DNA of 64,000 nt from Magnetococcales bacterium DCbin2. Its GTDB lineage: Bacteria; Pseudomonadota; Magnetococcia; Magnetococcales; UBA8363. Below, one piece after another: positions 938 through 25,963 of this stretch (its first letter is position 1; each line of letters opens with the position of its first letter). A model generated the notes under the pieces. It did no database searches and was not told the origin of the DNA. It saw nothing but the letters and a program-made list of their open reading frames with translations. The stretch covers positions 28,319 through 92,318 of the forward strand of contig PEAO01000001.1 of assembly GCA_002753615.1 (NCBI GenBank), written 5' to 3'. A program made the position numbers and the translations under genes.

Positions 938-3217
938 ATGGGAGGTGTATCGCCACGGAACCGCCGTCTGGAAGCTACGAAACCGTCGCCTGGGTGGATG
1001 GGGGGGAGGTTGGCTGATGCCAAGGTTCTACTACCCCTGGGGTTGGTACTGATATTCCTGCTTGTTTTTTTCCATTCTGCAAGTGAAGCCTTGTCGGAAC
1101 CGAATCAAAATGAATCTCCTCAAGGTAATGCGGCTACTGGGAAGGAGCCTACGCGCCTGACGGCTGACACATTGAATGACCCTCATGGAGTTCCGTGGGA
1201 TAAGGTTAAGGCCGATAAGAAAACCGGCAGGGCCTCGTACAATATCGAACTTGGGCGTCTTTTATGGGGCCTGCTTCAGGGTAACACCACCGTTGATCTG
1301 ACCATTAAAATTGAAGGTCAGTTGATAGAAAAGGAAGAGGATAGTGCTAAAGCCCTGAATGAAAAAGTCTCCTACGACTTGCGGGAACTGACTGTCCAGG
1401 GAGCTTTCGAGAGACTTTTGAGGAAACATAATCTGTCTTTTCATTACGATGGAGAGAAGGAAGAAATTAACATTTTCAAAAATCAGGGGAGGCCCCAGTC
1501 CACAGGTGGGGGTGCCACGACAGAAAAGGATGAGACCGTTGCTGCACCGAAGGAAAACAATAAAACTTTAATCCATACATTTGCCAATCCTGAGATGGTA
1601 AATAAGCTGAAATTTGCACTGAGTCGAATGAATATTAGTGCAACGGATACCTCCTTTACTGTTATTGATGAGGTTACTGTTTTATTCCGGGGGCCTGATT
1701 CTATCATCAATGACGTCGGCACTATCGTTAGGGGTTTGCAGGAAAAGGAAACCAGGGAAGCTGTCAAAGTCGGAATCATAACAAATGATGTAAAAGAAAC
1801 GATTGACACTATTATGAAAAGGAATAAGTTAAAGTGTTCCTTGTCGGTGGAGGAGCAGCAATCGACTGAAATAATTTGGTCGGGTAATACAAAAAAAGGA
1901 CCAACCGAAGTATTCTGGCTCAGTGATACAGAGTGCGGGTTCAAGAGGAAGATAAGTCTCGGCAACGCCGTAGCCGACACGATTATGGAACCTATCCAGA
2001 CCATGATCGACAAGGTTTATCGCATTATTGATGTGAAGCCGGCGGAGCAGGAGTTGACTGCGAAAAATGTAGAACCAAAGGCAGAATCGACAGGGGGCTA
2101 TTCTTCGGCAGATCCAAAAAACAACCCTATCGTATTGCAGTTCCAATCGTCTGCCGAGCAAAAGAAGCAGCCATCATTTCCCGTCGTTGTGAGGGATCCG
2201 ACGTGCAATGGATTGATTATATACGCCACGAACATTGATCACATTCCAGCACTTTCAGAACTCATTAAAGATTTGGATCAACCGGCCCAGTTAGTCGAAA
2301 TCGAGGTCATGATTGTGGAGGCGCAGAAAAATCTGCTGCGTTCCCTGGGGACAAAGTTGGGGGGGAGTGCCTATCCCACGATAGTCACCAAAGATACTAC
2401 CAATACTTCCAGTATTTCCAATTTATTCGATGGAAACAGAGGGGACCATGCCAGTGTGATTTCCCCCCTGACGAGTGGGGCTTCCTTGGGTTTCCTTTAT
2501 CAGGGGTCGCGAAATCTCCTGGACGCCACTCTGTCTGCATTTGCCCGCGACAATCTTCTGGAACAGGTGGCATCGCCCAAGGTTGTTGTCCTCAATGGAA
2601 AATCTGCTGAAATCAAGAGTGCCGACCAGCAAAGTTTTCGGGTGGAAGGGAGTGCTTTAACCAATCCACCAACCAATGATAGCTATCAAACTGTGGATAC
2701 CGGTGTTGAGATCAACATTACCCCGACTGTGGTGAGTGGTAACCCGACGGAGCCACAGATGGATGGAAAGAAATTTATACAATTAATAATTCATGCGCAA
2801 AATAGTTCGGTCAATCCACAAACTTTGGCGGCATTTTCTCAAAATTCGCAAACAATGGATAGTGTCGTGATCGTCCCGGTGAACTCTACCTTCATTGTCG
2901 GCGGGCTTTTCAAGACAACTCGGGAGGAAATAGAGGCTGGGGTTCCCTATCTCAAGGAAATACCCCTTTTAGGCGGACTTTTTAAGGAAAATAAATCGGA
3001 AGATCGAACCAGAGAGACTATCTTTTTCATCACTCCGCGTTCCCATTCCATCAGCCTCAATGACAGACAGTCCCAAGACTTGGCTTCTCTTATCGGAGGA
3101 AAAGAAATGAAAGCTTATGTCGTGAAGAAAAAAGGTGAACTTGGCCGGGATCAGGCGGAAATAATCAAAAATAGTAAGCTGATCGACATCAAAGATCATT
3201 GGCAGGAGGATGAATAG
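938..3217 (+). CDS. Secretin (GspD/PilQ family outer-membrane channel)
   Basis: 759-aa ORF with a purine-rich RBS (ggaggagagggg) directly before ATG 938. Signal-like segment LLPLGLVLIFLLVFFHSASEA. C-terminal secretin core LVEIEVMIVEA ... GVPYLKEIPLLGGLFK ... ETIFFITPR. Confidence 0.88.
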   Translation: MGGVSPRNRRLEATKPSPGWMGGRLADAKVLLPLGLVLIFLLVFFHSASEALSEPNQNESPQGNAATGKEPTRLTADTLNDPHGVPWDKVKADKKTGRASYNIELGRLLWGLLQGNTTVDLTIKIEGQLIEKEEDSAKALNEKVSYDLRELTVQGAFERLLRKHNLSFHYDGEKEEINIFKNQGRPQSTGGGATTEKDETVAAPKENNKTLIHTFANPEMVNKLKFALSRMNISATDTSFTVIDEVTVLFRGPDSIINDVGTIVRGLQEKETREAVKVGIITNDVKETIDTIMKRNKLKCSLSVEEQQSTEIIWSGNTKKGPTEVFWLSDTECGFKRKISLGNAVADTIMEPIQTMIDKVYRIIDVKPAEQELTAKNVEPKAESTGGYSSADPKNNPIVLQFQSSAEQKKQPSFPVVVRDPTCNGLIIYATNIDHIPALSELIKDLDQPAQLVEIEVMIVEAQKNLLRSLGTKLGGSAYPTIVTKDTTNTSSISNLFDGNRGDHASVISPLTSGASLGFLYQGSRNLLDATLSAFARDNLLEQVASPKVVVLNGKSAEIKSADQQSFRVEGSALTNPPTNDSYQTVDTGVEINITPTVVSGNPTEPQMDGKKFIQLIIHAQNSSVNPQTLAAFSQNSQTMDSVVIVPVNSTFIVGGLFKTTREEIEAGVPYLKEIPLLGGLFKENKSEDRTRETIFFITPRSHSISLNDRQSQDLASLIGGKEMKAYVVKKKGELGRDQAEIIKNSKLIDIKDHWQEDE

Positions 3218-3250: not shown

Positions 3251-4006
3251 TTGTTATTGCAAATGGATATTATTAATAAAATGTATCGTTTAAAATTTAT
3301 GCTAAGTATTTTTATTATGGTTTTGGTGGTTTACGGTTGCGTTACTCCCGTCATCGAAGATCCTCAAGATGTTCAAGAGGACGACATCACAAGAGTGACT
3401 CCTGACTCTGCGGGCGTCCCGGTATGGACTGTTGGTGAAAGATGGGAATACAGCGATGGTTATGCGTTGGAGGTGGAGAGTGTTTCCAAGGAAGACGGCA
3501 CTTTGCGGGGTGATCATGAACCTTATCCCCCCGAAAATACATTGACACGCTTCAAGGTAACACTGCCGGGCGAAAGTTCCATGGAGTTTCGGGAGGATTC
3601 CTGGATAGTCTGTAAGGGTTTTTTTAAAGTTGAGTCAAATTTTAGCGGCGAACACAGGAAGAATGTCTTCGTTTCTGAAAAGCCAGACCAATTATTTCCT
3701 TTATCCGTTGGGAAATCGGTGACTTATGACCGCGAATTTCTTCGGAATGGAAAACTTATCAAACATCGTAGTTCCTGGCAGGTGATAGACTACCAACCCA
3801 AAGTAACAATCTCCAATCATGATTATGGGTGCTGGATTCTGGAATGGCAAACCGATTCTTTGCAAAGTGATTGGAGTGGACATGAAACTTGGTGGTATTG
3901 CCCAGAGATCAATAACTATGCGCGGATGGAATACCGTTATGGCGAAAATGAGACTTCTTCCCGAGTGTTGATCAAATACTCTCACCCTAACAAGCATGAC
4001 CAATAA
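3251..4006 (+). CDS. Hypothetical lipoprotein (possible pilotin/accessory protein of the secretin)
   Basis: N-terminus MLSIFIMVLVVYGC resembles a lipobox signal. Lies 33 nt after the secretin stop. Likely true start is ATG near 3281 (MYRLKF...). No recognisable catalytic motif. Confidence 0.5.
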   Translation: MLLQMDIINKMYRLKFMLSIFIMVLVVYGCVTPVIEDPQDVQEDDITRVTPDSAGVPVWTVGERWEYSDGYALEVESVSKEDGTLRGDHEPYPPENTLTRFKVTLPGESSMEFREDSWIVCKGFFKVESNFSGEHRKNVFVSEKPDQLFPLSVGKSVTYDREFLRNGKLIKHRSSWQVIDYQPKVTISNHDYGCWILEWQTDSLQSDWSGHETWWYCPEINNYARMEYRYGENETSSRVLIKYSHPNKHDQ

Positions 4007-4072: not shown

Positions 4073-4690
4073 ATGGCTCGGACAGGACAGTGCAAGGAGA
4101 CGGTGATGGCCATTGAGAATAGAAAGGTGGGTCGGTTTGGGAGTCAAGGGGGTTTTACACTGGTGGAGTTGATGGTTGTGGTGACGATCATTGCAATCCT
4201 CTCTGCGGTCGGACTTCCCAGGTTGTATAAATATGTCCGCTCCAGCGAAGCGACCCAGGCATTGGAGGTTTCAGGTTGGATCGTCAAGGCAATTCATGGG
4301 TATGTGGACTCCCAAAGCAATACCCCCATCGACCAGTTGAATGCGCTCCTTAAGCCGGGGTCTGTGGGTAATCTGAACAGTGGTTCTCCAGACAAGGAAA
4401 TTTCCACTCTGATTCCGCACCTGACAGGGCCTCGTGAAGTAAAATTTCAGTACGAGATCAACGCTATCGTACAAGCGAACCACGATGTTTGGATTTGTGT
4501 CAAGTCGTGGGACAAAAAGGCAGACGGGGGGGGGGATCCCAACGCCTACATTCTTTATTCGGGGGCGGAATCGGCCAATCCTAACTGGCAGGGGCACTCG
4601 TTTTTGGCCAAGTATGTGGATGTTGCTGCTACGGCGATTCCCGGTGGTAACTGTGATGCCAATGGCGGAGCGGTCGCTGACCAGGATTGA
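4073..4690 (+). CDS. Prepilin-type N-terminal cleavage/methylation domain protein (major pilin/pseudopilin candidate)
   Basis: GG/FTLVELMVVVTIIAILSAVGLP: class III signal followed by a hydrophobic helix with Glu at +5. Alternative start ATG 4106 gives a 16-aa leader. Confidence 0.85.
   Translation: MARTGQCKETVMAIENRKVGRFGSQGGFTLVELMVVVTIIAILSAVGLPRLYKYVRSSEATQALEVSGWIVKAIHGYVDSQSNTPIDQLNALLKPGSVGNLNSGSPDKEISTLIPHLTGPREVKFQYEINAIVQANHDVWICVKSWDKKADGGGDPNAYILYSGAESANPNWQGHSFLAKYVDVAATAIPGGNCDANGGAVADQD
4526..4535 (+). repeat. Homopolymeric G10 tract inside the pilin CDS
   Basis: gac ggg ggg ggg gat encodes D-G-G-G-D (ADGGGDP); ten consecutive G. Confidence 0.9.
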
Positions 4691-4714: not shown

Positions 4715-7309
4715 GTGGTCTTAGTCATGAATGGAAGTCATTATCTGCGTGTGACCTACCATATGGAAAGCGGTAATCCGAAAAGTTGCTGCTTTGAAAT
4801 GACCATGAAGGGTCCCAGATCGTTAGTTCTTGGCGGTTTGGGTCCCGACTATCCGAGATTCAATGATTTTGCTCTGTGTCATCCGAAATTTCCCTTGCCG
4901 TATCGGTTTTGTCTTCTGTCTCGATGCATGGATGGGAACGGGGGGTGGAAGTGGCAAATTCTTGATTTGGTGCCTAAGCGTAGTTGGGGGCGTGATCCTG
5001 CCAGGACGCAAGATTTGCGACCTTCCCAGGCCGTATGTTTCTTGGAAAAGGGGAATGTGCGGGTGGGTTACGAGCTGCTGGATGTGAAAAATGGCGATAA
5101 AGTTGTCATTCGCCCCCCCCACGGCAAGGGGGGGGGCGGTTCTCGGAATTTGCCAAGTATTGAACTAGAAATTCTCCATGTTCGTCCTGCTGGAAATTGC
5201 CAACGGGTTGAATATGATGGAAAAACAATGATCTGCGATCCTCAGGTCGAACTGGGTGGGTCAGGCTCTCCTTCGGTCAGTTGGAAAACCTTGATCTCCG
5301 ATCTCCATTGGGAGGATCTGTTGAGTGGGGTTATCAGTAATGAAATATATGATATATTTAATTATTTAAGACGAATCAAAGCGATAAAGAAAGGTGCTTT
5401 TTGGCAGCAAGACCAGAGCGAAAAAGAGTTGCGTGCTAAGTTTAAACATTTGAACAAGGTCATGGCTGAGAAATACACCAAGATTTATTCAAAGTGGGTT
5501 TTTGAAGTAAAAGATGAAGAAGAAAAATTAAAATCTGGTGCTATGCGGATCCTTAATCAGGATTTGACATCTTTTTTCCGTTTTCTTATGCGCATCTTAC
5601 AGCTTTATCAACTAGGACCGGAGCGAGTCAGAATCATCCAATGGGCTGGTTGGAAGACCGGGATACCCGTTTTCGTGGGTGATGCCATGGAAAAGGTATT
5701 GAAAGATATGGAGGGGGTTCCGAAAGGTCGTGGCGGTGCTTCAGGCAAGGGAAATGAGGCTGATGCCAACAAAGCTTCGGACAAAAAAGACTTGCCCCTC
5801 ATTATTTACACGAGGAAAAATCTAAAATATTTGGATAAATATCCTAAGGAAGTTTTGGACAGGTTTGGAATCATTCCTCTGGCCTCCTCGGTACGCCAGG
5901 ACCGTCATTATTGGGCGGTGCTGGATCCTTTCGATCAGGGGTGGCGATTTTTTATGGATGCGTTACGGCAGCCCAATGAACCGGAATATTTGCATGTGGT
6001 GGATATCGCAGATTACGACCAGTTCCGAGGCGAGATGGGAAAACGTCTGGATTATCGCCAAACTTCTGGGGATGGCGCATCGGTGGAGGATGGAAGCCAG
6101 GAATTGCCGTACGAAGCCATTCCAGATCGTATGCTGAAAATGTTGCAGGATGCCCAGGATCAACGGGCTTCCGATATCCATATTGAGGCGGACGATGAGA
6201 AAGGTGTTGTCCGTTTCCGGGTGGATGGCGTATTAAGCGAATATGCCGAATTCGCTAAGGAGACCCATAATGCTATTGTCTCCCATTTTAAGGTGAAAAC
6301 CCAGATGGATGTCACGGAGAAGCGACGGCCCCAGGACGGGCGTTTGACGGTTCATGGGACCGACATCCGAGCCTCAACCTATCCTACTGTCAAGGGAGAG
6401 AAATTTGTTTTGAGGTTGTTGGACCAGGAGGGGATCAAGAAGTCTACCGATTATTTGGGAATGCTCAGCATGGACTTGCAGCTTTTGCGTACCAACATCC
6501 ACAATCCCAGTGGTCTGATTCTTATCTGCGGTCCTACGGGTTCTGGGAAGACCACGACTCTCTACGCTTGCCTTTCGGAGTTGAACACACGCGAAAGCAA
6601 TATCATGACTATTGAAGAGCCGGTGGAATATCAACTGCATGGAATCAACCAGATGCAGGTGAGGACCGACATCGATCTTACTTTTGAAAAGGGTTTGCGG
6701 ACCATCCTCAGACAGGATCCCGACATCATCATGGTGGGGGAGATTCGCGACAGCAACACCGCCAACACCGCCATTCAGGCAGCCATGACGGGGCACCTCG
6801 TTTTATCCACCATCCATACCAATTCAGCACCCCAGGCAATAGGGCGGTTGTTGGAGATGGGGGTAGAGCCTTATATGATTACTTCCGCTCTGAATCTTAC
6901 GGTGTCTCAAAGACTGGTGCGTCGGGTCTGTTTGTCCTGCCGCAAACCGATATCGGGCGCGGAAATCAGGAGAAAAATGGATGATAATGGTTTTGATTAT
7001 GGCCATTTTGTCCAGACTTTTGGAATGGATATCCCTCTTCAAGATTATTTCTATGAGGCTGACCCGCATGGTTGCGAACAGTGTTTTAATCGTGGCTACC
7101 AGGGGCGGATGGCCATTTTTGAAACTTTTAATATGAATCGGGAAGTACGAGACTGTATTCATGCCAAAAAGACCGATACCGAGGAATTATGGGAGGCTCT
7201 GCGTGGTCCCAGGTGGAAGGAGATGACTCTTTGGGCACATGCGCGTTCTTTGTTGATGCGGCAAGGGGTGACGACATTCGATGAAATCACCCGCGTCATG
7301 GGGTATTAG
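4715..7309 (+). CDS. GspE/PilB-family secretion ATPase with a long unrecognised N-terminal extension
   Basis: Walker A GPTGSGKTTTLYA, Walker B/Asp box IIMVGEIRD, His box LVLSTIHTN, tetracysteine CLSC...CEQC. T2SSE_N-like segment YPKEVLDRFGIIPL...AVLDPFD. The preceding ~365 aa have no motif I can name. Confidence 0.9.
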   Translation: MVLVMNGSHYLRVTYHMESGNPKSCCFEMTMKGPRSLVLGGLGPDYPRFNDFALCHPKFPLPYRFCLLSRCMDGNGGWKWQILDLVPKRSWGRDPARTQDLRPSQAVCFLEKGNVRVGYELLDVKNGDKVVIRPPHGKGGGGSRNLPSIELEILHVRPAGNCQRVEYDGKTMICDPQVELGGSGSPSVSWKTLISDLHWEDLLSGVISNEIYDIFNYLRRIKAIKKGAFWQQDQSEKELRAKFKHLNKVMAEKYTKIYSKWVFEVKDEEEKLKSGAMRILNQDLTSFFRFLMRILQLYQLGPERVRIIQWAGWKTGIPVFVGDAMEKVLKDMEGVPKGRGGASGKGNEADANKASDKKDLPLIIYTRKNLKYLDKYPKEVLDRFGIIPLASSVRQDRHYWAVLDPFDQGWRFFMDALRQPNEPEYLHVVDIADYDQFRGEMGKRLDYRQTSGDGASVEDGSQELPYEAIPDRMLKMLQDAQDQRASDIHIEADDEKGVVRFRVDGVLSEYAEFAKETHNAIVSHFKVKTQMDVTEKRRPQDGRLTVHGTDIRASTYPTVKGEKFVLRLLDQEGIKKSTDYLGMLSMDLQLLRTNIHNPSGLILICGPTGSGKTTTLYACLSELNTRESNIMTIEEPVEYQLHGINQMQVRTDIDLTFEKGLRTILRQDPDIIMVGEIRDSNTANTAIQAAMTGHLVLSTIHTNSAPQAIGRLLEMGVEPYMITSALNLTVSQRLVRRVCLSCRKPISGAEIRRKMDDNGFDYGHFVQTFGMDIPLQDYFYEADPHGCEQCFNRGYQGRMAIFETFNMNREVRDCIHAKKTDTEELWEALRGPRWKEMTLWAHARSLLMRQGVTTFDEITRVMGY
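5113..5136 (+). repeat. C8 and G9 homopolymer tracts 7 nt apart inside the ATPase N-extension
   Basis: cgc ccc ccc cac ggc aag ggg ggg ggc encodes RPPHGKGGG. Confidence 0.9.
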
Positions 7310-7313
7310 GCCC

Positions 7314-8357
7314 ATGGCCCGCATTCGTCCTCGCTCCTTGCTTTTTTTTACCCGACAGTTTTCTTCGATGGTGAACAGTCACCTGCGGCTCAAGCAGATT
7401 CTGGAATCCATGGCGAATGATCCGAGTACGGACAAAAATATGAGGCCTGTATTACGACATCTATCGGATTCACTGGACCGGGGTATGGATCTTGATGTGG
7501 CGATGGGTAGTCGCAGAGATGTTTTCAATCAAGATTATATTTCTATTGTTCGATCGGGAGTGCAGTCCGGCAAATTGGGATCGGCACTGGAGCATCTAAC
7601 CAAATATCTGAGTGAAGCGCATCAAAATCGGAGCAAGCTGCTGACGGCCATCTCTTATCCCGTATTTATTTTTATAATTTTTCTGATCATGTTTCATATC
7701 ATGGTGTTTTTTATCCTGCCAAGATTTGAACTTATTTTTAAGGAGTTTGATAAGCCACTCCCGGAACTGACCCGGTGGGTGTTGGCATTCAGTCATTTTT
7801 ATCTTGAACACCTGACGATCATCATAACCTTGCTGGTACTGCCGGTGACCATGTTTCTGACTACCCGAATGAGTTCAAAGTGGCGACTGATCTGGGACAC
7901 GTACAAGTTGAACGTCCCCATTCTAGGATCCTTGTGGAAACTGTCGGCCCTGCACCGCTTTTTAAGTAGTCTCGGACTACAGGTAAAAAATGGCGTTTTG
8001 ATCGTGGATGCCATTCCGCTTGCCGGGAGTGCTGCCAACAATCTTTTTCTTAGAAGCATCTCTGATCAGGTGAAGCAAAGTCTCCAGGATGGTGCTTCTG
8101 TGACGGTGGCTTTTTCCCCCCACCCCCTTTTCCAAGGCGTTGCCCTCCAGATGATCCGCGCAGCCGAGGAGAGTGGTGTCATGGCCGAACCGTTGATTTC
8201 CACCGCAGACCATTTCAATGAACTGCTTCAGAGTCGGATACAGGTCATTACCGATCTGGTGACACCGATTCTGACCATTATTCTTGGGATGATCATTACT
8301 ATGATGCTTATTTCAGCCTTTCTGCCTGTATTCGAACTGGGAGGGTTACAGAGATGA
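7314..8357 (+). CDS. GspF/PilC-family inner-membrane platform protein
   Basis: Polytopic membrane protein with hydrophobic helices (LTAISYPVFIFIIFLIMFHIMVFFILP; LVTPILTIILGMIITMMLISAFLPV) and helical cytoplasmic repeats typical of T2SS protein F. ATG 7314 lies 4 nt after the ATPase stop (the track ORF begins at 7281). Confidence 0.8.
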   Translation: MARIRPRSLLFFTRQFSSMVNSHLRLKQILESMANDPSTDKNMRPVLRHLSDSLDRGMDLDVAMGSRRDVFNQDYISIVRSGVQSGKLGSALEHLTKYLSEAHQNRSKLLTAISYPVFIFIIFLIMFHIMVFFILPRFELIFKEFDKPLPELTRWVLAFSHFYLEHLTIIITLLVLPVTMFLTTRMSSKWRLIWDTYKLNVPILGSLWKLSALHRFLSSLGLQVKNGVLIVDAIPLAGSAANNLFLRSISDQVKQSLQDGASVTVAFSPHPLFQGVALQMIRAAEESGVMAEPLISTADHFNELLQSRIQVITDLVTPILTIILGMIITMMLISAFLPVFELGGLQR

Positions 8358-11300
8358 CCATCTCAACGCAACGGAACCTTTGGAATTTGCCCAATTGGGG
8401 ATTGATGTCCGAGCCGGAACCGTTTAGTTCTGTAGAAATACCCAGGAAAGATGCCGCTACCGGCGTGCTTCGTTGTCTGGCATGGAACCGTGACGGAACT
8501 TTGCTGGCCGCTGCCACCGATGAAGGGCTTTTCCTGAGTCCCAGTCAACAATCTGGGGAAGAGGAAAGGCCTGAAGAAAATAGTATCCGATGGAAAATGG
8601 TTATACCAGGTGTTTTTAACGCCATTATTTTTCGAGGGAATAACCGATTCGTCCTGGTAGATCGCCGGGGTATGATTCTCCCCTGTCTGTTTCGGGAGGA
8701 TCTTTTGAAGGTTCAGGTTGGCAAGGCGTTGCCTGGGTCCTCTGGACGATTTTGGTTACCAGCTTTTTCCGAAGACGGAAGCCTATTGGTTGCACCGACC
8801 GATGGCGGTGGTATCGGCCTTTATTTTCCGTATGGTTCAGAGGCGGATCGCAAATTTCTACCAGAGACGGGGAGAGCGATTGAGATGGCGGCCATCTCTC
8901 CCAATAAGAAATGGTTGGCCTACTCTCAGGCCTCTGGGAGTCGTTCCGAAATTTTTGTTTTTGGCTTGGTTTTGGATGATGGTGATAACGGATTGAAGAT
9001 AGGTTCAGAACCGCAACGGGTCTTGGAATACACTCAAAGTGGGGATTTTACCGCATCCTTTTTATTGTTTGATCGCGAGGGTACTGTTTTGTATGTTGGT
9101 GGTTCCAAGCACCAAATCAAGACATTTATTTATGGGCTGGACCCCGCTGGGTCGGATACATGGGTATGGGTCGAAAAGACGCACCGACATGGCGGTGGGG
9201 CTGGGAGGGTCAATGCCATTGAATTTTGGGGTGGTGCCGAGGAGTACATGGTTTCTGTCTCCGATAACCGCACGCTGTGTCTTTGGCATCGTGGTCACTC
9301 TCGTTCCTCCTCTATCGGTTATGACGCTTATTGGGTTGTCAGCCACTATGCTGGAGAACAGGTGGCTAAGATGGCATTTCACCCCAAAAAAACTTGGTTG
9401 GTCGCCCACAGGGCGGAAGAAGAGAGGATCAGCTTTTTTGCCGTAGACACACAAGATATCGCTAATCGAAAACAATTTACCAAGCTTCAAGCCTTCAAGG
9501 TACTTTTGGTCGGGGACGAGCCAGAAATAACGAGGCTGTTTGAGAAATTTCTTGCAGAGGGAAAGGCGAGCATTCAAAAGCAATTTGTTGGTGGAAGCAA
9601 TCATGACGATATTAATATTATTAGAGTCAACTGTAATAATTATTTTAGTGATGATGGACCGAACAGGGGACAGGGAGATCAAGACCAGGGAAAAGTATGG
9701 CGGGAGGTGTTCTTTTGGCGTCTTCCCAAACTGAAAATGGGAAGTGCCCATGATGCCATTCGGTGGTTATTACTGAGAGTTTATATACAGAACGCCGATT
9801 TATTGATCTACGTTGCCAAGGATCCATTGAAATCTGGCCTAACTCCCGATGGTATTTCAAAGTTTTCCAACGATTTGCGTCGTTGGGTCAGAGTTCTCAC
9901 AAATGCGGCCCCCAGGCGGGGTTCCCCCCATGACGATGGGATACCTTGGTTATTGGTTACCCAGAAAGATATCAAGGGAGAAGATGACAAAAAACTAGGT
10001 TCATTTCTCGCCGATCATCAATGTAGAGAAGTGGTGGAGATTGGTTCCTGGGATTTTCCAAGTGAGAATATGGAAAAAATCAGGGAGGCGGTTTGTTCCG
10101 TTCTTCTTAAGATGTTTCCTACGGGTAATATCGTAAAAAGAAATAGCGTATTTCCCATTTTTCGCGGATTCATGCGGGAGAGGTTTTATGCCCAGGCACA
10201 GATCCTTCCAACGGCAACGTTTCTTGATGAGGCCAACAAGATAACTCCTGGGGTTGACCGGCCTCAATTGGAGAGGGATTTCAATTCTTTCCGCGTTCCG
10301 GCGACCCGAAGCGGTTGGATGACGACGGCACCCGACAAGGATCTGTTATTGATTAACCGGTATGCCATGGATGCGTTGTTGGCACATCTTCTGGAAAGTG
10401 CGGTGAACAATCAACGCAAGGATGGAGCCGTGTTTTGGGATGAATGGGTGGAGAATTCTCAAAAGAGTTCCAATCAATTGGTATCCCGTGCTTGCCAATT
10501 GGGTTTGCGGGAATGGGTCTGGAGCCTATGCGAACGGGAGCAGTTGGCGGCAGGATTTGAAACTGTTTTGGAAGATGGGGAGTTGATCGAGCGGAGAAAA
10601 ATGGTATTTTCCCCCCTAACCAGTGGGCGTACATTTCCAACCGGGGGATACTTGCCAGCACCGAAAGTGACCTACTCTTTATCTTGTTCTGAGGATGAAC
10701 TGTTCCACAATCTTGTTATCAAGCTGAAAATAATATCAGGAATAAAAAGAATAGATGCATTCTGGCAGAATGGGATGATATTTTCCGCATCTGGCGACCA
10801 AAGGTACTCCCTTGGGTTTTATTTTGGCCTTTACGAAAGAAAGCGTGATTATTGTGACCGGCAGGAGGGAAACAGGGTTGTACTCAACCTTTTTTACATG
10901 GGTGAGAATATCCCCACTGCGACTTGGCAGCTATTTCAGGATACCGTTGAGACACTGTTGCGGACTTGGGCTTATGACTCTTTGACTCATCAGGAGCCTG
11001 CCAAGGAGGTTATCGCTGAGCGTTTTATCCGATTTTTTTGTACAAACAGGGAATGTGGCCATGACGAACTTGATTCTGTTCGTGCTAAAGAGGCATTCAA
11101 AAAAGGTAATCCACGGGAAACATGTCAGTGTGGTGCGCCGATTGAGTTGAGAAGCTTTTTCGATGTTGGCAGCGGTCAGGACGCTGGGACAAAACAATTA
11201 TATCGGGAAGAGAAAGTTGAGAGTCGTATCAGAAAACATAAACGGGATTTTTCAAAGTGGTTGCTTACAAATACATCTTATGAAATCTCACAAGCTACCC

Positions 11301-11914
11301 TAGATGGGTTGACGGTGGTTTTTACCGATATTAAAGGTTCCATGGATCTGCTGGCTCGGGAGAAAGAGGAAGGGTGGTTTAAGGCATTGATGCTCCATTT
11401 TGATCGGGCTAACGCTCTTCTTGAAGAATTTCGGAATGGGTATATGGTCAAGAACATGGGTGATGGATTTGTTTTTGTGTTTACCGATACTTTTGAAGCC
11501 CTGAACTATTGCGCCCAACTTCTTAAAGATTCCCCCCGCGACAAAGGTATTCAAATCCGGGCATCCATGCATAGTGGTCCAGTCTACATCGATACCGAGA
11601 TTGGAGATATTTTTGGTGTGCATGTGGGTTTGACGGCTCGGATTATGGAGCTTCACAAAGGGGCGGTCATTCTGGCCAGCCAAGTGGCCCTCGATAAACT
11701 CAAAAATCACCCAAATTTTGAGCCTCAATTTTCTACAGATCATATCGCATCGGTGGATAAAACGGGCAACAGATTTGTTATTGTCAATGAGGCGAGATAT
11801 ACCTCAGAAGAGCTTAAAAAGGTTGGAAAGGGAAATAAGGTTGATTCTTTGGCAGATGATGATGAGATCAAGGTTTATCTGATCGATCATCGCAAAGCAG
11901 CTACAACATCTTAG
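8354..11914 (+). CDS. 1186-aa multidomain protein: WD40-like beta-propeller, degenerate ROC/COR-like region, Zn-ribbon, class III nucleotidyl cyclase
   Basis: ATG overlaps the platform-gene stop (ATGA). WD-like strands: CLAWNRDGTLLAAATDEGLF, ISPNKKWLAYS, VSDNRTLCLWH. Ras/ROC-like strand KVLLVGDEPEITR (P-loop GKT/S lost) and LLVTQKD (NKxD-like). CxxC...CxC at FFCTNRECGH...CQCG. Cyclase motifs VVFTDIKGS, VKNMGDGFVFVF, FGVHVGLTAR. Confidence 0.75.
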   Translation: MTISTQRNLWNLPNWGLMSEPEPFSSVEIPRKDAATGVLRCLAWNRDGTLLAAATDEGLFLSPSQQSGEEERPEENSIRWKMVIPGVFNAIIFRGNNRFVLVDRRGMILPCLFREDLLKVQVGKALPGSSGRFWLPAFSEDGSLLVAPTDGGGIGLYFPYGSEADRKFLPETGRAIEMAAISPNKKWLAYSQASGSRSEIFVFGLVLDDGDNGLKIGSEPQRVLEYTQSGDFTASFLLFDREGTVLYVGGSKHQIKTFIYGLDPAGSDTWVWVEKTHRHGGGAGRVNAIEFWGGAEEYMVSVSDNRTLCLWHRGHSRSSSIGYDAYWVVSHYAGEQVAKMAFHPKKTWLVAHRAEEERISFFAVDTQDIANRKQFTKLQAFKVLLVGDEPEITRLFEKFLAEGKASIQKQFVGGSNHDDINIIRVNCNNYFSDDGPNRGQGDQDQGKVWREVFFWRLPKLKMGSAHDAIRWLLLRVYIQNADLLIYVAKDPLKSGLTPDGISKFSNDLRRWVRVLTNAAPRRGSPHDDGIPWLLVTQKDIKGEDDKKLGSFLADHQCREVVEIGSWDFPSENMEKIREAVCSVLLKMFPTGNIVKRNSVFPIFRGFMRERFYAQAQILPTATFLDEANKITPGVDRPQLERDFNSFRVPATRSGWMTTAPDKDLLLINRYAMDALLAHLLESAVNNQRKDGAVFWDEWVENSQKSSNQLVSRACQLGLREWVWSLCEREQLAAGFETVLEDGELIERRKMVFSPLTSGRTFPTGGYLPAPKVTYSLSCSEDELFHNLVIKLKIISGIKRIDAFWQNGMIFSASGDQRYSLGFYFGLYERKRDYCDRQEGNRVVLNLFYMGENIPTATWQLFQDTVETLLRTWAYDSLTHQEPAKEVIAERFIRFFCTNRECGHDELDSVRAKEAFKKGNPRETCQCGAPIELRSFFDVGSGQDAGTKQLYREEKVESRIRKHKRDFSKWLLTNTSYEISQATLDGLTVVFTDIKGSMDLLAREKEEGWFKALMLHFDRANALLEEFRNGYMVKNMGDGFVFVFTDTFEALNYCAQLLKDSPRDKGIQIRASMHSGPVYIDTEIGDIFGVHVGLTARIMELHKGAVILASQVALDKLKNHPNFEPQFSTDHIASVDKTGNRFVIVNEARYTSEELKKVGKGNKVDSLADDDEIKVYLIDHRKAATTS
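11306..11728 (+). other. Class III adenylate/guanylate cyclase homology domain of the 1186-aa protein
   Basis: Both metal-binding Asp are present (FTDIKG; MGDGF), as is the Lys in VKNMGD. The Arg of the N...R pair is present but the Asn position reads Gly (VGLTAR). Confidence 0.7.
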
Positions 11915-11974: not shown

Positions 11975-12613
11975 GTGGATAATAGTCCTGAGAATGGGTT
12001 TACGTTGGTTGAATTGATGATTGTTGTCGTCATCATCGGCATTTTGGGAATTCTTGGTCTTCCCAAGATGAGACCCTATATGTTGCAGGGCAATCTTCAA
12101 GCTGCGATTCCCTATCTTATGGCTATTGCAGCTAAAGAACGTTCCTACTACCAACTGAATGGATCCTATTATTCGTCGCCGGATAATGATGAGCAGGGCT
12201 TGGAGGATATTCTGGGTGTGGATTTGAGTGGGGCTGGAGACTTTTGTTTTTTGGTCAGATTCGGAGATGGAAACTATATCAGCCCTTCGGGAAACAGTGG
12301 CAGCGGTGATGAGGGGATCGCAAAATTTGAGGTGTGGGCACTTCTTCGGGACGATTCCTACTCTGGGCTGACTTCGGAAAACGATACCGTGACGGCCTTT
12401 AACTTGGCGAGTGTTTCGTGTATTACCGCCGATGAAAAAAATCATGCGACCGGATTTGTTGGTCCTGATGGGAGTGATGTGGGGGGGGAGGGGCGTATTC
12501 TATCACTTCGTTTTCCACCACCGGCGTTCGGCGTGGATCCTCGCACACGGGCCGGGCGCAGCATCAATCTGAACTGGGAAAACGGAGTTACCCTCCATGA
12601 CGCACTGCGCTGA
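11975..12613 (+). CDS. Prepilin-type N-terminal domain protein (second pilin/pseudopilin, GspG/H-like)
   Basis: MDNSPENG/FTLVELMIVVVIIGILGILGLP: short leader, Gly-Phe cleavage site, Glu +5. Confidence 0.85.
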   Translation: MDNSPENGFTLVELMIVVVIIGILGILGLPKMRPYMLQGNLQAAIPYLMAIAAKERSYYQLNGSYYSSPDNDEQGLEDILGVDLSGAGDFCFLVRFGDGNYISPSGNSGSGDEGIAKFEVWALLRDDSYSGLTSENDTVTAFNLASVSCITADEKNHATGFVGPDGSDVGGEGRILSLRFPPPAFGVDPRTRAGRSINLNWENGVTLHDALR

Positions 12614-12635
12614 CGATATGTTGGGGGATGATTGG

Positions 12636-13271
12636 ATGGGGAAGAGATCCAAACTGAAGAGGTATCGGCGGACAGCGGTACAACGGGGCATATCCTTGAT
12701 CGAAGTGATGATGGGGATTGTTTTGCTTTCTTTGTTTGTCATTGGTGTTGCGGAGTTTTGGGCGGTTTTTAAAGGGCAGCTTGTCCAAAACACGATTCGG
12801 CAGCAGGCGGTGTTTGTTCTTCATGGCCAGATGGAGCGTATTGTTGCCATTTATCGGCAACCGGACGAGTCCTATCAGATTTACGGTTTGACCACCGACT
12901 ATAACGCCGATCATCCCGATACGAGCCATTCCATTCTCGTTGACAGTCCCAATGGATTGGTGACGAGCGATAGGAACGATTTTGCCCAAGGAGTTATCTT
13001 CTTTCAGGATACGGGGATCTTTGGTCCCTCTTCCAAGGATCGCAATGTGGTCTGGATTGACCAGGAACATGGCGTGGCAGGTTACCTGAGTTGGGTATTG
13101 GCCGGTATTGGTCAAGCCAACTGTTATCCTGGCGTGTATTGTCAGGAATTAAAAATCTATTTGGATTATCCCTACTGGGTTGAAAAAAACGACATGATCT
13201 TGCAGCTTCGCCCATCCCCGGACGGCATTGATACGCTACGTATCGATACCTTGGTTGGGCAGTGGTCATGA
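12636..13271 (+). CDS. Minor pseudopilin (GspI/PilV-like)
   Basis: ...AVQRG/ISLIEVMMGIVLLSLFVIGV prepilin-like N-terminus. Internal ATG 12636 (MGKRSK...) is preferred over the track start 12597, which overlaps the upstream gene. Confidence 0.65.
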   Translation: MGKRSKLKRYRRTAVQRGISLIEVMMGIVLLSLFVIGVAEFWAVFKGQLVQNTIRQQAVFVLHGQMERIVAIYRQPDESYQIYGLTTDYNADHPDTSHSILVDSPNGLVTSDRNDFAQGVIFFQDTGIFGPSSKDRNVVWIDQEHGVAGYLSWVLAGIGQANCYPGVYCQELKIYLDYPYWVEKNDMILQLRPSPDGIDTLRIDTLVGQWS

Positions 13272-13909
13272 GTAGGGTGGCATTCACAGGTGCCATGGTG
13301 CCTGGATCGGCGAGGTTCTGCTGGCCACAGTCCGGGTCTACCCTGGTGGAGTTAATGGTCGCCTCTTTCATCTCCTTGCTTATTGGTTTGGCGGTGTTGC
13401 AGACCGTTTTTCAAATTGAAAAAATGGTGACCTTGTTATTGGCTACGGCACGGATGAATCAGGAAGCACGGGAAATATTTTTCCTTCTTCTTTCCGGGGG
13501 GAGGGAGGGGGATGCCTATTTTCCCGGGATTCACGGCCATGACCGCGATCCAACGGGTAGCGATCTGCTTCATGTCAGTGGGCAGATATGGTTGGGAGAT
13601 GGGATCAATGGAACTGGGATCTTTGATGGTGGGGTCTCTCCGTATGATATTTCCTGTCTGAAAGCAAATGATCCACTGCCTCTTTGTTCAGCCGGAGGTG
13701 ACCATGTTATTGGAAAAGGGATGGTTCTCGACTTCGGTACATCTCAATCTTTGGCCATTCATGGCCGAACGGTGGATGTCTCATTTCAGTTGTTTTCACC
13801 CCATCTTGTCCCCCGTGGGACGCATGGTGGCTATCATCAACCCGATTACATGAAGCGGTTTTGGACATCGGTAGGGATGATGCTTTCTCAAGCCCCGGAG
13901 GTCCCATGA
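13268..13909 (+). CDS. Minor pseudopilin (GspJ/PilW-like)
   Basis: ...PQSG/STLVELMVASFISLLIGLAVL prepilin-like N-terminus. ATG 13268 overlaps the upstream TGA (ATGA). Confidence 0.65.
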   Translation: MSRVAFTGAMVPGSARFCWPQSGSTLVELMVASFISLLIGLAVLQTVFQIEKMVTLLLATARMNQEAREIFFLLLSGGREGDAYFPGIHGHDRDPTGSDLLHVSGQIWLGDGINGTGIFDGGVSPYDISCLKANDPLPLCSAGGDHVIGKGMVLDFGTSQSLAIHGRTVDVSFQLFSPHLVPRGTHGGYHQPDYMKRFWTSVGMMLSQAPEVP

Positions 13910-14535
13910 CGCCATGCCGGTTGGGGTATGTCCATAAAGATTTAGGGGGAGAGTTCGGTGGTGTACTTATGACCATTTTGATCATCATTACAGCGATGGT
14001 CGGATTGATTGCCTTTTTGTTCGAGCATCTCCTCTATGTGGAGACCATGGCGGTGGAGGAATCATTGGCTCGGGTACGAATTTACTGGGCCATGTCGGGT
14101 CAGGGGAATTATTTTCTGAGCCGTTTGAAATGGCGCGTCAGAGAACTTGATGAGACAAGTGTCCCCTCATTTTCTGCCGTTCAGACCGCTTTGGGATCTT
14201 TCAATTTTGCACAACAGGATCCCGATCCCACCGTGTGTGCGACCACCATCGACAGTTCTATGATCATCCGCTGCATATGGGATGACGTGGCACCCCATAC
14301 TGCGCAAAATATTCGCCCTTGGGACTACGGACCGGGATATTTGCTTCCCATTCGTGTTTCTGGAGGTGAGAAAGCGGGCAGTATACTTTTTTCTTTGGCA
14401 CAGGGTGCTGTCGCCGGTAATGGACCGTTGTTACAGTCCAAATTAATCGCAGGCAAAGGGTTGCAGGTATCCTATGCCTTGGATGGTGCCAGCGGATTAT
14501 CCGCAACGGTTCGACTCACGCAATACCAGGAATAA
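13906..14535 (+). CDS. Minor pseudopilin-like membrane-anchored protein (GspK/PilX-like position)
   Basis: N-terminal hydrophobic anchor GGVLMTILIIITAMVGLIAFLF without Glu +5, as in GspK-type proteins. ATG 13906 overlaps the upstream stop (ATGA). The call rests on position and N-terminus only. Confidence 0.5.
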   Translation: MTPCRLGYVHKDLGGEFGGVLMTILIIITAMVGLIAFLFEHLLYVETMAVEESLARVRIYWAMSGQGNYFLSRLKWRVRELDETSVPSFSAVQTALGSFNFAQQDPDPTVCATTIDSSMIIRCIWDDVAPHTAQNIRPWDYGPGYLLPIRVSGGEKAGSILFSLAQGAVAGNGPLLQSKLIAGKGLQVSYALDGASGLSATVRLTQYQE

Positions 14536-14539
14536 TGGC

Positions 14540-16621
14540 ATGTTTGGGAATATAAAAACCTCCGGTGGGGTTACCCCCGAATCAAAAAATGTAAACCGTC
14601 CTCTTCCGAACTCTGTACGCGACCGGTTTATGAAAATAAAGGCAGATTTTCAGCATGGATTTCGCGCATGGTCTAAGGGACTTACCTCTACGAAGACGCC
14701 ACCTAAAGCGGATCCGCCAAAAAATAAGGTGTCGCTAAACAGGGAGGTGAATCTGGTGTTGACTTCCTGGGGTTGGTTGCGGCTCGGTCCTGGGAATCAA
14801 TCCAATGACAGGGTATTTTCTTATAAAGTTATTATTGACCAATATGAAAATAATAGAGAAAAACAAGATGATATCAGCAAGTCTGCCGAGCAGTCACGGT
14901 TAAAGCAACGGCATGAGACGCTGCAACTGTCGGCGGTTCTTCATTCGCTTAGAAATTGGTGGTCCGAATCTGCTGAGTCGCAATACCGAGACCAAATTTC
15001 CCATCTTCATGTGATGTTGGGTGAAATCAGTGGCGTCATTGTCATGCCCAAAGATGATAGTTTCGTGAGTCGCGCAAACTGGATACGGACGAATTATCGG
15101 ATTCACAAGGCCCTTTCCTGCCGTTTAGCCTCCTATCTTCCTGGTTCCTACGCCTTTGTGCAAAGAAAGGTTCTGGACGATTTTCATTCCAAATTTGAAC
15201 CCTTTAAGGAGTTCACCAACAAAAAAATTGCTGGGGTTTTTCCTCTGGATGTCCTCCTGCTACATCATACGGATATCAAGAAATACTATGATGATAAAAA
15301 ACTGGTTGGGATTCTTAACCTGGAAGCGAGAAGAACCCGAATATTTTTGATTGAACGAGAAAAAACAGAGACCCTCCCCTTTGATGTTCCATGGGGGTTT
15401 GTGGATGTATTTGAAGATAGTGAATTTTCTACCAGTTTAGACGGTACACCGGAGGAGATTATCGGGAACCTGTTACCCATCGATCAAGACGAGTTGTTGC
15501 GCTTGATGCACGCTTACCCTGTTCCCCATTTGGCGATGCAAAAACTTTTTTCTCATCTTCTTGGATCATTACGCCTTGTCCTGGAGGGATACGTTCTCCG
15601 GGAAGGGGAAGATATTTCTCAAGATAGCCCATTTTTTCTGGCTGGAGGTTTTGATCTTTACTCGGAAAAGACCCCCGATAGGAAGGATTGGAAGCTTTTA
15701 AATGAGCTGGGGAAAAGAGTCGTTCATATACTTGGATTCAAAGAGAAAACACTCTCATCCCATTCCGAATCTAGTTGGTTACCATTGACTAAAAAAGATA
15801 TACAAGGGATCGGCGGTGGCATCTATTTTTCCAAACCTGGTCTCAGGGAGGTTTCGTCCGAGAATGAGACAATAGAGACGTATTACTCTGAAAGTGATTT
15901 ATACTATGCTGGGAATTCGCCAAGTAATCATGCTCTATCAAAATTTGCATCTGCATCCCGGGAATCTGTCAATAGTCCTCTGCCCCATGCCGAGGTATCC
16001 CCGACCGTCCCTGATGAGGAGAAGCCCACGATGTCGATAGGCGGAAAGGTATTTACGGGTATTTTCCTAATCCTATGCATTGGTTTTTATTTTTTTAGTA
16101 GGCACTATAACTCCTTGTATGATGGTCTTTATACCGGTTATATCGACACCGTCAAGTCGAACAAGGTCAAGATGGAAGAATTGGATAAATACCGGGATTA
16201 TTATCTCTCATCATCAAGCAATCGGTTGCTGCGTTTGAGTAAGGAGATGGATGAACGGATTAAACTCCAGAAACTTCGCGTCACCAAGCTGGGATTGGGT
16301 CAGTACAAAATAATTTTAGAAGGGGTGTTTTATAATAAAATACAGGGAGATGGAACAAATTTGAAAGAGACGAGAATGATCGATGAGTCGCGTGTTCACC
16401 AAGATAAGGGTACGGGAAGCGGCTCCATCAAAGGGCTAGGCGACAAGGCTGTGAGTGACCACTTCAAGGAGTATCTTGGTCACCTTTTTAAATCGACCGA
16501 CTCCGTTACCTATGGAATCGGCGAGTTGAGCATCGTGGGGCAGGATCGGCAACAGTCCGGTGGATATAGTTTTATCGTGACGATTATTGAGAGCAGTAAT
16601 AAAAAAGAAATAAAACTTTAA
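14540..16621 (+). CDS. Bitopic membrane protein in the GspL / PilM-PilN position (assembly-platform component candidate)
   Basis: About 690 aa. Large predicted cytoplasmic part, a single TM (VFTGIFLILCIGFYFF) about 170 aa from the C-terminus, then a periplasmic tail. Start is 4 nt after the upstream stop. No sequence motif recognised; the call is from topology and synteny. Confidence 0.4.
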   Translation: MFGNIKTSGGVTPESKNVNRPLPNSVRDRFMKIKADFQHGFRAWSKGLTSTKTPPKADPPKNKVSLNREVNLVLTSWGWLRLGPGNQSNDRVFSYKVIIDQYENNREKQDDISKSAEQSRLKQRHETLQLSAVLHSLRNWWSESAESQYRDQISHLHVMLGEISGVIVMPKDDSFVSRANWIRTNYRIHKALSCRLASYLPGSYAFVQRKVLDDFHSKFEPFKEFTNKKIAGVFPLDVLLLHHTDIKKYYDDKKLVGILNLEARRTRIFLIEREKTETLPFDVPWGFVDVFEDSEFSTSLDGTPEEIIGNLLPIDQDELLRLMHAYPVPHLAMQKLFSHLLGSLRLVLEGYVLREGEDISQDSPFFLAGGFDLYSEKTPDRKDWKLLNELGKRVVHILGFKEKTLSSHSESSWLPLTKKDIQGIGGGIYFSKPGLREVSSENETIETYYSESDLYYAGNSPSNHALSKFASASRESVNSPLPHAEVSPTVPDEEKPTMSIGGKVFTGIFLILCIGFYFFSRHYNSLYDGLYTGYIDTVKSNKVKMEELDKYRDYYLSSSSNRLLRLSKEMDERIKLQKLRVTKLGLGQYKIILEGVFYNKIQGDGTNLKETRMIDESRVHQDKGTGSGSIKGLGDKAVSDHFKEYLGHLFKSTDSVTYGIGELSIVGQDRQQSGGYSFIVTIIESSNKKEIKL

Positions 16622-17818: not shown

Positions 17819-18205
17819 ATGAGTAAGATAAAAGAGATAAGATTGGACGAAGAGACTACTTTTTTCGTCCAGGTTGTGGACGATGAAGATGAAGTGGAGT
17901 GGCTGGATTCTTCAACGGAACAGGAAGAGTCTGGGGGACTGATCCGAGCCGGCCGGCGGGAAGAATCTTTGACCAAAAGAGTCTCCGTTTCGATGACGGA
18001 TGCCCTGACGGCGGTCTATCCGGTGATAGAAAAGGTTGTGGAAAAGTTTCGTGCCATCGATCCTTCGGAGTGCCGGGTCTCTTTTGGCCTGAAAGTTCAT
18101 GGCAATGTGGGGGTTGTCTTGGTCTCCGAAGTGGGGGTTGAAGCACAGTTGAAGGTAACCTTGCGTTGGCGTAAACCTAAGGCAAAAAAACAAAAAACAT
18201 CATAA
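17819..18205 (+). CDS. Small acidic protein resembling Trypco1 (trypsin-co-occurring domain 1 / CU044_2847-like)
   Basis: 128 aa. Acidic N-half (VVDDEDEVEWLDSSTEQEESG). C-terminal VSFGLKVHGNVGVVLVSEVGVEAQLKVTLRW matches my recollection of the Trypco1 signature (EFGLK...G...A.L.V.L.W). Sits immediately upstream of a trypsin-like protease gene. Confidence 0.6.
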   Translation: MSKIKEIRLDEETTFFVQVVDDEDEVEWLDSSTEQEESGGLIRAGRREESLTKRVSVSMTDALTAVYPVIEKVVEKFRAIDPSECRVSFGLKVHGNVGVVLVSEVGVEAQLKVTLRWRKPKAKKQKTS

Positions 18206-18219
18206 AAATAGGATTATAC

Positions 18220-19647: not shown

Positions 19648-19663
19648 AAAGGTAAGATGACCA

Positions 19664-20668: not shown

Positions 20669-20672
20669 TCCG

Positions 20673-25940: not shown

Positions 25941-25963
25941 GGCACGGCACCTTAAGTCATGCA

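Follow-up and report, generated by a model that had tools for sequence, protein, structure and literature searches.

A divergent bacterial Roco-type protein with a predicted pseudo-GTPase domain and a class III cyclase domain, encoded within a secretion-like operon of uncultured Magnetococcales

What might a large multidomain protein with a class III nucleotidyl cyclase domain be doing between the platform and pseudopilin genes of an operon that resembles a type II secretion system (T2SS)? This question is raised by a 64,000-nucleotide stretch of DNA (hereafter the window) from Magnetococcales bacterium DCbin2 (contig PEAO01000001.1, positions 28,319 to 92,318). The gene concerned is an open reading frame (ORF) of 1186 amino acids (aa) without internal stops at 8354..11914 on the + strand, and the two GenBank entries for its product (HAT49642.1 and MBF0602094.1) are both annotated as 'hypothetical protein'. 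A first-pass annotation of this DNA had proposed that the protein combines WD40, degenerate ROC-COR, Zn-ribbon and class III cyclase domains, and all of these domain calls were borne out by profile and fold searches. Sequence comparison leaves us highly confident that it belongs to a bacterial family of the Roco type, although as a very divergent member, and we propose, with much less assurance, a role for it at the secretion machine. The protein is known from a handful of uncultured Magnetococcales metagenome-assembled genomes (MAGs), which provided three distinct orthologous loci, and all statements about its function below are inferred. The features of the gene are as follows, P0008 being our label for a homolog described below.

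8354..11914, + strand: whole gene, encoding the WD40 / pseudo-Roc / COR / Zn-ribbon / class III cyclase protein, predicted to be cytoplasmic
8340-8345: GGAGGG, a Shine-Dalgarno-like site 8 nt upstream of the ATG
8354..8357, + strand: start/stop overlap with gspF (T2SSF), ATGA, the ATG of the gene lying over the TGA of gspF
8444..9478, + strand: WD40 beta-propeller, ~aa 31-375 (Pfam, HMMER, and hhalign to the WD40 domain of P0008)
9479..10123, + strand: pseudo-Roc domain with a Ras-like G-domain fold, aa 376-590
10124..11023, + strand: COR-like region, aa 591-890, helical in its N-terminal half and alpha/beta in its C-terminal half (hhalign, the match of P0008 to 3dpu, and Foldseek)
11024..11158, + strand: Zn ribbon, aa 891-935, with C896, C901, C924 and C926 (ortholog invariance and Cys pairs of the family)
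11306..11893, + strand: class III nucleotidyl cyclase domain, aa 985-1180 (PF00211, PDB profiles, and a family hidden Markov model, HMM)

A word-indexed search of 5.8 billion clusters led back to the protein itself and, beyond it, to no more than two orthologs (50% and 44% identity); all three come from Magnetococcales MAGs and are annotated 'hypothetical protein'. Genome-collection scans, made with this protein and with a 715-aa protein of the same operon, and a metagenome scan gave no match. Exhaustive HMMER searching of residues 1-985 against 1.84 billion representatives retrieved the representative of the protein's own family and 13 outside matches, all of which fell in the WD40 region only; the seven of these that were scanned against Pfam were all WD40 proteins. 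When aa 1-375 were scanned alone, Pfam WD40 scored 31.5 bits against a gathering cutoff of 27, confirming the WD-like repeats that had been noticed at the N-terminus; the number of blades is not fixed by our poor AlphaFold2 (AF2) model. The 611-aa middle region between the WD40 and cyclase domains had no match in Pfam even at E <= 10, and neither NCBIfam nor PADLOC matched it; Pfam Roc and Pfam COR thus gave no direct match on the protein. A word-indexed search with a three-sequence alignment of this region was also without a match and likewise missed the three source proteins, which had come up with the full-length single sequence as query.

The connection to the Roco proteins was provided by P0008 (MBW8014843.1; Planctomycetota, 969 aa), which came up as a WD40-only match and which is composed of WD40, a Pfam Roc/Ras domain whose GDTGVGKS is intact, an extended middle region, a Zn ribbon and a TIR domain. 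Because its Roc domain and the region downstream match the Roc-COR structures 3dpu, 6hlu and 8r4b of Chlorobium tepidum Roco (CtRoco) over ~360-380 residues, P0008 is a genuine Roco protein. Aligned to P0008 with hhalign, the three-ortholog alignment gave 99.0% (E 4e-18) over 721 columns, corresponding to residues 31-926, and the middle region without the WD40 domain gave 95.9% (E 6e-9); against a 105-sequence Roc-COR-ribbon profile, the middle region gave 96.5% (E 9e-10) over 425 columns. The alignment with P0008 placed KVLLVGDEPEITRLF on KIVLLGDTGVGKSGLA and the ribbon RFFCTNREC...CQCGAPI on RIFVCPNPEC...CPCGATI. This ribbon follows the pattern C896-x4-C901 ... C924-x-C926, which is invariant in the three orthologs, and the matching Cys pairs are present in the wider family with slightly varying spacing, so that the Cys ribbon called at aa ~896-926 holds.

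The AF2 models were of low confidence because only three orthologs were available, with a predicted local distance difference test (pLDDT) score of 40 for the full length and 49 for the middle region, and we used the ranking of fold searches alone, with caution. With the low-confidence model of the middle region, LRRK2 (E 1e-10), LRRK1 and the leucine-rich repeat (LRR)-Roc-COR structure of CtRoco led the PDB matches in Foldseek. The top 15 included LRRK2, LRRK1, CtRoco and the CtRoco COR domain (3dpt), Methanosarcina barkeri Roco2 (MbRoco2, 4wnr) was found at rank 49, and a long run of Rab and Ras GTPases was also matched. A Ras-like Roc domain followed by COR is thus indicated by hhalign, by the bridging homolog P0008 and by Foldseek, in keeping with the degenerate ROC-COR module that had been suspected. 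A CheY-like pseudo-receiver had also come into consideration for aa 380-590, prompted by KVLLVGDEPEI..LFEKFL, and was rejected, as the profile-profile and fold searches gave Roc/Ras instead.

Within this module, the motifs expected of a working GTPase were not found. KVLLVGDEPEITR of the protein aligns on KVVLVGDTGVGKS of the Roc-containing relatives, and the G1 motif reads GDEPEITR, GMESLTST and GDEPYTSN in the three orthologs, with neither the Lys nor the Ser of the family GDTGVGKS, in agreement with the P-loop loss reported at first pass. By comparison, the P-loop GxxxxGK[ST] is kept in 119 of the 121 relatives examined, the other two being N-terminally truncated. At G3 (switch II), where the family reads WDLAGQ(P), the orthologs share an invariant WRLPKL in which DxxG is lost. 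At G4, the (S/A)ARxD of the family is replaced by TQKD, TKEG and SVNI in the three orthologs, so the TQKD at residues 536-539, earlier taken for a retained NKxD-like motif, is not a conserved feature. The pseudo-Roc domain also has an insertion of ~45 aa after helix 1 and is the least conserved folded part of the protein, with 25% invariant columns among the three orthologs. Judged from the loss of G4, of the DxxG of switch II and of both Lys and Ser in the P-loop, the Roc domain of this clade appears to be a pseudo-GTPase, and GTP binding, GTP hydrolysis and nucleotide-dependent dimerisation are predicted to be absent.

In the place of switch II, all three orthologs have the same basic RLPKL (aa 456-460, window 9719-9733). 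What was once the P-loop is acidic and reads DEPE (aa 388-391, window 9515-9526), of which E389 alone is strictly invariant. It is pure speculation that the acidic DEPE and the basic RLPKL could pair and so mimic a nucleotide-filled pocket.

A search with the Roc-COR-ribbon region of P0008 returned 306 proteins, the best 120 of which scored 397-475 bits. These proteins (P0018-P0137, together with P0008) define a family that is built as [WD40]-Roc-COR-Zn ribbon-[TIR_2 or Guanylate_cyc] and has intact GTPase motifs. A class III cyclase was present in 23 of the 121 family proteins examined, the remainder having TIR or being truncated, and members were found in Nitrospira, Pyrinomonadaceae, Ktedonobacteraceae and many metagenomes; one example, P0024, carries the JGI name 'class 3 adenylate cyclase/GTPase SAR1 family protein'. 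When the three orthologs were aligned with eight WD40-Roc-COR-ribbon-cyclase proteins, hhalign gave 99.8% (E 2e-29) over 756 columns (query 230-1106), and the alignment was collinear. From this collinearity, running from the WD40 domain to the cyclase, and from the score of the cyclase with the family HMM (see below), we conclude that the protein descends from the family layout. The domain combination, which had been singled out as unusual, is thus known in the family and not unique; the protein stands out by its lost G motifs, by Gly for Asn in the cyclase, and by its position in an operon.

Most family members have only ~125 aa before the P-loop. These short N-termini might represent partial propellers that are completed by oligomerisation, and some 'WD40-less' members may be split or mis-called genes. 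At one locus (L009), a 79-aa WD40 ORF (6657-6896) was seen just upstream of the Roc-COR-cyclase gene of P0048 (7001-9322). According to a review, all prokaryotic Roco proteins known in 2019 were of the LRR-Roc-COR type only (PMC6337361), and in the work of Kaur et al. 2020 Roc-COR is merely a rare nucleoside triphosphatase (NTPase) module in vWA-MoxR conflict systems (PMC7159879). In the literature that we searched, we found no description of the [WD40]-Roc-COR-Zn ribbon-[TIR/cyclase] family. The natural reading of its canonical members is a GTP-controlled Roc-COR dimer switch with a WD40 input and a dimer-dependent output, either a cyclase or an oligomerising TIR domain.

For the C-terminal domain, Pfam PF00211 matched residues 982-1124 with 27.3 bits against a gathering cutoff of 21.9, the PDB profile matches were led by Ma1120 (E 3e-11) and Rv1900c (E 3e-9), and a cyclase HMM built from family members scored 75.6 bits, far over the generic Pfam score. 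The metal-binding Asp residues are D992 (FTDIKGS) and D1037 (KNMGDG), which align with FTDvvGST and KTIGDSFM of the family, whose full canonical set of cyclase motifs is completed by DVFGGTVNFAARV and KG. The specificity pair K1033/D1085 aligns with K101/D157 of Ma1120 and with the K/D of the family, and is by all appearances the Lys/Asp pair typical of ATP-using cyclases. Six of the seven canonical catalytic residues (D992, K1033, D1037, D1085, R1096 and K1159) do not vary among the orthologs, and of all the domains the cyclase core is conserved best, with 49% invariant columns as against the 25% of the pseudo-Roc domain. The exception is the transition-state Asn, which is kept in 22 of the 23 cyclase-bearing relatives and replaced by G1092 in all three orthologs, R1096 of the Asn-Arg pair being kept; in addition, the phosphate loop, FTDxxGST in the family, reads GSM in the protein, with Met for Thr. 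The profile match, the metal Asp pair and the Lys/Asp pair are thus those of a class III cyclase and the Asn-Arg pair is not, just as the motifs had first been described (both metal Asp, the Lys and Arg residues, and Gly for Asn).

The Gly had been taken to hint that the domain might only bind a nucleotide. Ma1120, with its K/D pair, the Arg, and Ala164 at the Asn position, is an active adenylyl cyclase, and restoring the Asn (A164N) lowered its activity (PMC4215837). Because Ma1120 is active with Ala at this position, Gly for Asn is not a sign of a dead enzyme, which weakens the binding-only idea, and the cyclase of our protein is probably functional, making cyclic AMP (cAMP). The same residues bear on an alternative in which the protein is a double pseudoenzyme, its dead GTPase and dead cyclase (binding ATP at most) serving as a structural, dimeric piece of the platform that may replace or partner adaptors of the GspL/PilM type. 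The loss of all G motifs, the change from Asn to Gly at a position where 22 of 23 relatives have Asn, the Thr-to-Met change in the FTDxxGST loop, and the lack of a receptor for cyclic nucleotide monophosphates (cNMP) among the window proteins scanned all speak for such a scaffold. However, the remaining catalytic residues, including both metal Asp residues, are invariant, the most conserved part of the protein is a cyclase core for which a scaffold would have no need, and Ma1120 is active without the Asn.

The operon itself is a conserved cluster of ~17 kb, with all of its genes on the + strand and separated by overlaps or short gaps. In the window it comprises the following features in addition to the gene described above.

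689-717: best sigma-70-like site, upstream of the secretin gene
938..3217, + strand: secretin, first gene of the conserved cluster
3251..4006, + strand: 251-aa protein with a lipoprotein-like N-terminus and no family match
4073..4690, + strand: prepilin-type (pseudo)pilin
4715..7309, + strand: GspE/PilB-type ATPase, 864 aa, with an N-terminal extension of ~470 aa
7281..8357, + strand: GspF/PilC-type platform protein
11975..14535, + strand: four overlapping small genes, three of them with prepilin N-methylation motifs
14474-16621, + strand: 715-aa protein with a single transmembrane (TM) segment near residue 520, GspL/M-like by topology only
16650-17777, + strand: 375-aa protein with a single TM segment near residue 25, GspL/M-like by topology only

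The genes for the 715-aa and 375-aa proteins are the last of the conserved cluster. In the three orthologous loci the gene order was secretin, unknown, pilin, GspE (833-864 aa), GspF, our gene, four small genes, a gene for ~670-715 aa and a gene for ~370 aa. The flanks differ, with enolase and RecQ in one locus and an integrase fragment (upstream, in L002) and rpsB in another, and for one ortholog, P0003, we further came across a second MAG contig of identical layout and a short Logan contig. In each of the three distinct orthologous loci, then, the gene has its fixed place after gspF and before the pseudopilin genes, which answers the question, posed at first pass, of whether homologs adjoin gspE/F-like genes: they do so in every locus, inside the secretion operon. 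The overlap of the start codon with the GspF-like stop was likewise found as described (ATGA at 8354-8357), and the 4-nt overlap is common to all three loci, being kept in L001 and L002 as well; no terminator-like site was found in the 60-nt gap 3' of the gene.

Identity among the orthologs was 45-52%, the same range as for the 715-aa and 375-aa proteins, compared with 62-65% for GspE, which is more conserved; the protein thus diverges about as fast as the remaining accessory genes of the cluster do. The ORFs were intact in the three loci (1159-1186 aa), with 43-49% invariant columns in the WD40 domain and the cyclase core. These values are relevant to the idea of a decaying, functionless Roco-cyclase remnant trapped in the operon, for which the degenerate G motifs, the lost Asn and the large insertions relative to the family could be cited. 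A pseudogene would carry stops and frameshifts, and with intact ORFs at this level of divergence and invariance we regard decay as extremely improbable.

The protein has no hydrophobic stretch of TM-helix length, and it is therefore predicted to be cytoplasmic. Among the secretion families in Pfam and NCBIfam it had no match to a known Gsp or Pil component (GspC/L/M, PilM/N/O), and for this reason we view it as an addition to the machine and not as a divergent core part. GspL, GspM, GspC and PilM were not recognised anywhere in the cluster with Pfam and NCBIfam, which favours the scaffold alternative introduced above, but the adaptor slot may already be filled by the 715-aa and 375-aa proteins with their GspL/M-like topology. 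With the cyclase residues also weighed, we consider a double pseudoenzyme rather unlikely. The 715-aa and 375-aa proteins themselves had no homologs in Pfam, NCBIfam, PDB or a species-representative genome collection. Similarly, the N-terminal ~470 aa of GspE (window 4715-6130), which are 45-49% identical across the three orthologous clusters, had no sequence match in Pfam or PDB; this extension is a candidate regulatory or docking domain.

The variable flanks and the habits of the canonical relatives bring in a further alternative, according to which the protein would be, as its relatives probably are, a self-contained WD40-sensor/Roc-COR/effector protein of a conflict or immune type with a nucleotide signal as its output. 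It would guard the machine (e.g. against phages that depend on pili or secretins) or simply travel with a mobile module of 17 kb, and would not regulate secretion. The genes of five canonical cyclase-type relatives stood alone in unrelated surroundings, without T2SS genes close by, one of them near a restriction-modification pair and one near a PemK toxin gene. TIR and cyclase outputs are swapped on the same sensor-switch chassis in the family, and the canonical relatives matched PADLOC at the domain level only (TIR, and weakly Pycsar PycC for the family cyclases); the variation of the cluster flanks among genomes and the integrase fragment upstream in L002 point in the same direction. Our protein, however, had no match among the PADLOC defence-system models, the loss of the GTPase switch is unique to its clade, and the strict translational coupling to gspF together with a fixed internal position across 45-52% protein identity argue for integration into the machine in both expression and stoichiometry. 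An immune role of this kind thus appears quite improbable to us.

We also looked downstream of the cluster, where the first-pass annotation had suggested control of a protease/MoxR module. At 17819-23507 (+) the window carries a row of genes for Trypco1 (128 aa), a 475-aa peptidase of the trypsin type, a 334-aa AAA ATPase and a protein of 966 aa whose C-terminal domain is FGE-sulfatase; peptidase/ATPase conflict modules of this type have been described by Kaur et al. 2020 (PMC7159879). These genes were absent downstream in the other loci, with RecQ in their place in L001 and other genes in L002 and L003, and the functional tie was consequently rejected.

How, then, could a Roco-type cyclase serve a secretion-like machine? 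Class III cyclases have to dimerise to form their active sites, which lie at the interface. In Roco proteins, dimerisation is brought about by COR, and GTP binding shifts the monomer-dimer equilibrium (Wauters et al. 2019, PMC6337361). We propose that the protein is a lineage-specific cytoplasmic accessory subunit of the T2SS-like machine whose WD40 propeller would dock it on the cytoplasmic part of the secretion platform, the candidate docking sites being the 470-aa extension of GspE, GspF itself, and, in the 715-aa protein, the ~517 aa that are cytoplasmic. Through its COR region, the protein would then dimerise and pair two cyclase domains, and the cAMP output would report or tune the state of the machine. 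As GTP binding appears to have been lost, we further propose that the ancestral nucleotide-driven switch was replaced by partner binding, such that partner-dependent COR dimerisation would govern cAMP synthesis; translational coupling to gspF would match the stoichiometry of the protein to that of the platform. A pseudo-GTPase Roco protein acting as a machine-associated, COR-dimerised adenylate cyclase is the function that we find likeliest; taken as a whole, mechanism included, it is a proposal that we hold tentatively, at somewhat less than an even chance.

Several points weigh against it. Operon position is the sole link of the protein to the machine and to its putative Gsp partners. The missing Asn (G1092) and the GSM in the phosphate loop could each lower the activity of the cyclase, and scans of the cluster proteins and of some of the other ORFs in the window brought up no cNMP-binding protein. 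The alternative TIR output and the lone, variable contexts of the relatives fit an immune-sensor ancestry and not a secretion role. The case is also built on sequence comparison together with poor AF2 models (pLDDT 40 and 49).

A more elaborate form of the machine-associated cyclase can be imagined, although we think it unlikely to be correct in full. Here the T2SS-like machine of magnetotactic cocci would have a dedicated second-messenger generator in the form of a captured Roco protein of the immune-sensor type, whose GTP switch was replaced by a fixed pseudo-GTPase conformation (DEPE facing RLPKL). With the WD40 domain docked on GspE/GspF, assembly or substrate engagement would dimerise the cyclase and lead to cAMP, or local cAMP would feed back on the ATPase through its 470-aa domain.

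If the machine does have a built-in cyclase, no earlier Roco protein would have had a defined partner machine, and no earlier secretion system a cyclase of its own. That a cyclase gene is translationally coupled to gspF points to local signalling by cAMP at a T2SS-like platform, of which we found no description in the literature searched, and in evolutionary terms the protein looks like a conflict-type sensor chassis domesticated into a housekeeping machine. These data may also have implications for Roco and LRRK2 biology, as they expose a large family of bacterial proteins that join Roc-COR to a simple enzymatic output, which is TIR in some and a class III cyclase in others. Where the output of a bacterial Roco protein is easy to assay, the control of an effector domain by Roc-COR would become tractable to study, and the protein described here represents a natural pseudo-GTPase version of this family.

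Farther along the window, a 1670-aa protein with FecR and cadherin-like domains is encoded at 25964-30976 (-), adjoined by a B12-binding radical SAM gene at 24465-25964 (-) and a DUF2461 gene at 23683-24414 (-). At 58135-62007 (-) there is a gene for a 1290-aa protein whose sole Pfam match is a weak C-terminal HD domain.

Compared with the canonical members of its family, the protein shares the order WD40-Roc-COR-ribbon-cyclase, the four ribbon cysteines and a specifically related cyclase, but the relatives keep G1, G3 and G4, have Asn in 22 of 23 cyclases and, in the five contexts examined, are encoded by stand-alone genes. So divergent is the protein that the HMMER search of residues 1-985 reached these relatives through the WD40 part only. 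It is also longer (1186 aa versus 650-890 aa), with a full-length WD40 region and a longer COR region and C-terminus. The Roc-COR tandem is found as well in CtRoco (3DPU, 6HLU) and MbRoco2 (4WNR). CtRoco, however, is an LRR-Roc-COR protein with an active GTPase and a GTP-dependent monomer-dimer cycle and without an enzymatic output domain, whereas in our protein WD40 is N-terminal, the G domain is apparently dead, and both a Zn ribbon and a cyclase are present. The eukaryotic Roco kinases LRRK2 and LRRK1, the top Foldseek matches (E 1e-10 to 4e-9 over ~620 aligned columns, with TM-scores that are low because the query model is poor), follow a similar logic of repeats, Roc-COR and an enzymatic output, plus WD40, but differ in having a kinase as the output, a C-terminal WD40 domain and intact GTP binding. 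For the cyclase, the best solved relatives are Ma1120 of Mycobacterium avium, which shares the K/D pair and also lacks the Asn, and Rv1900c/LipJ; these are single-domain or lipase-fused proteins without Roc-COR and with no link to secretion genes. CyaB of Pseudomonas aeruginosa is a membrane cyclase that is encoded elsewhere and regulated by a chemosensory pathway. The Pil-Chp/FimL-CyaB system of P. aeruginosa type IV pili likewise joins a pilus machine to a class III cyclase and cAMP, a functional analogy only (PMC3019171); CyaB, unlike the Magnetococcales protein, is neither a Roco protein nor encoded between platform and pilin genes.

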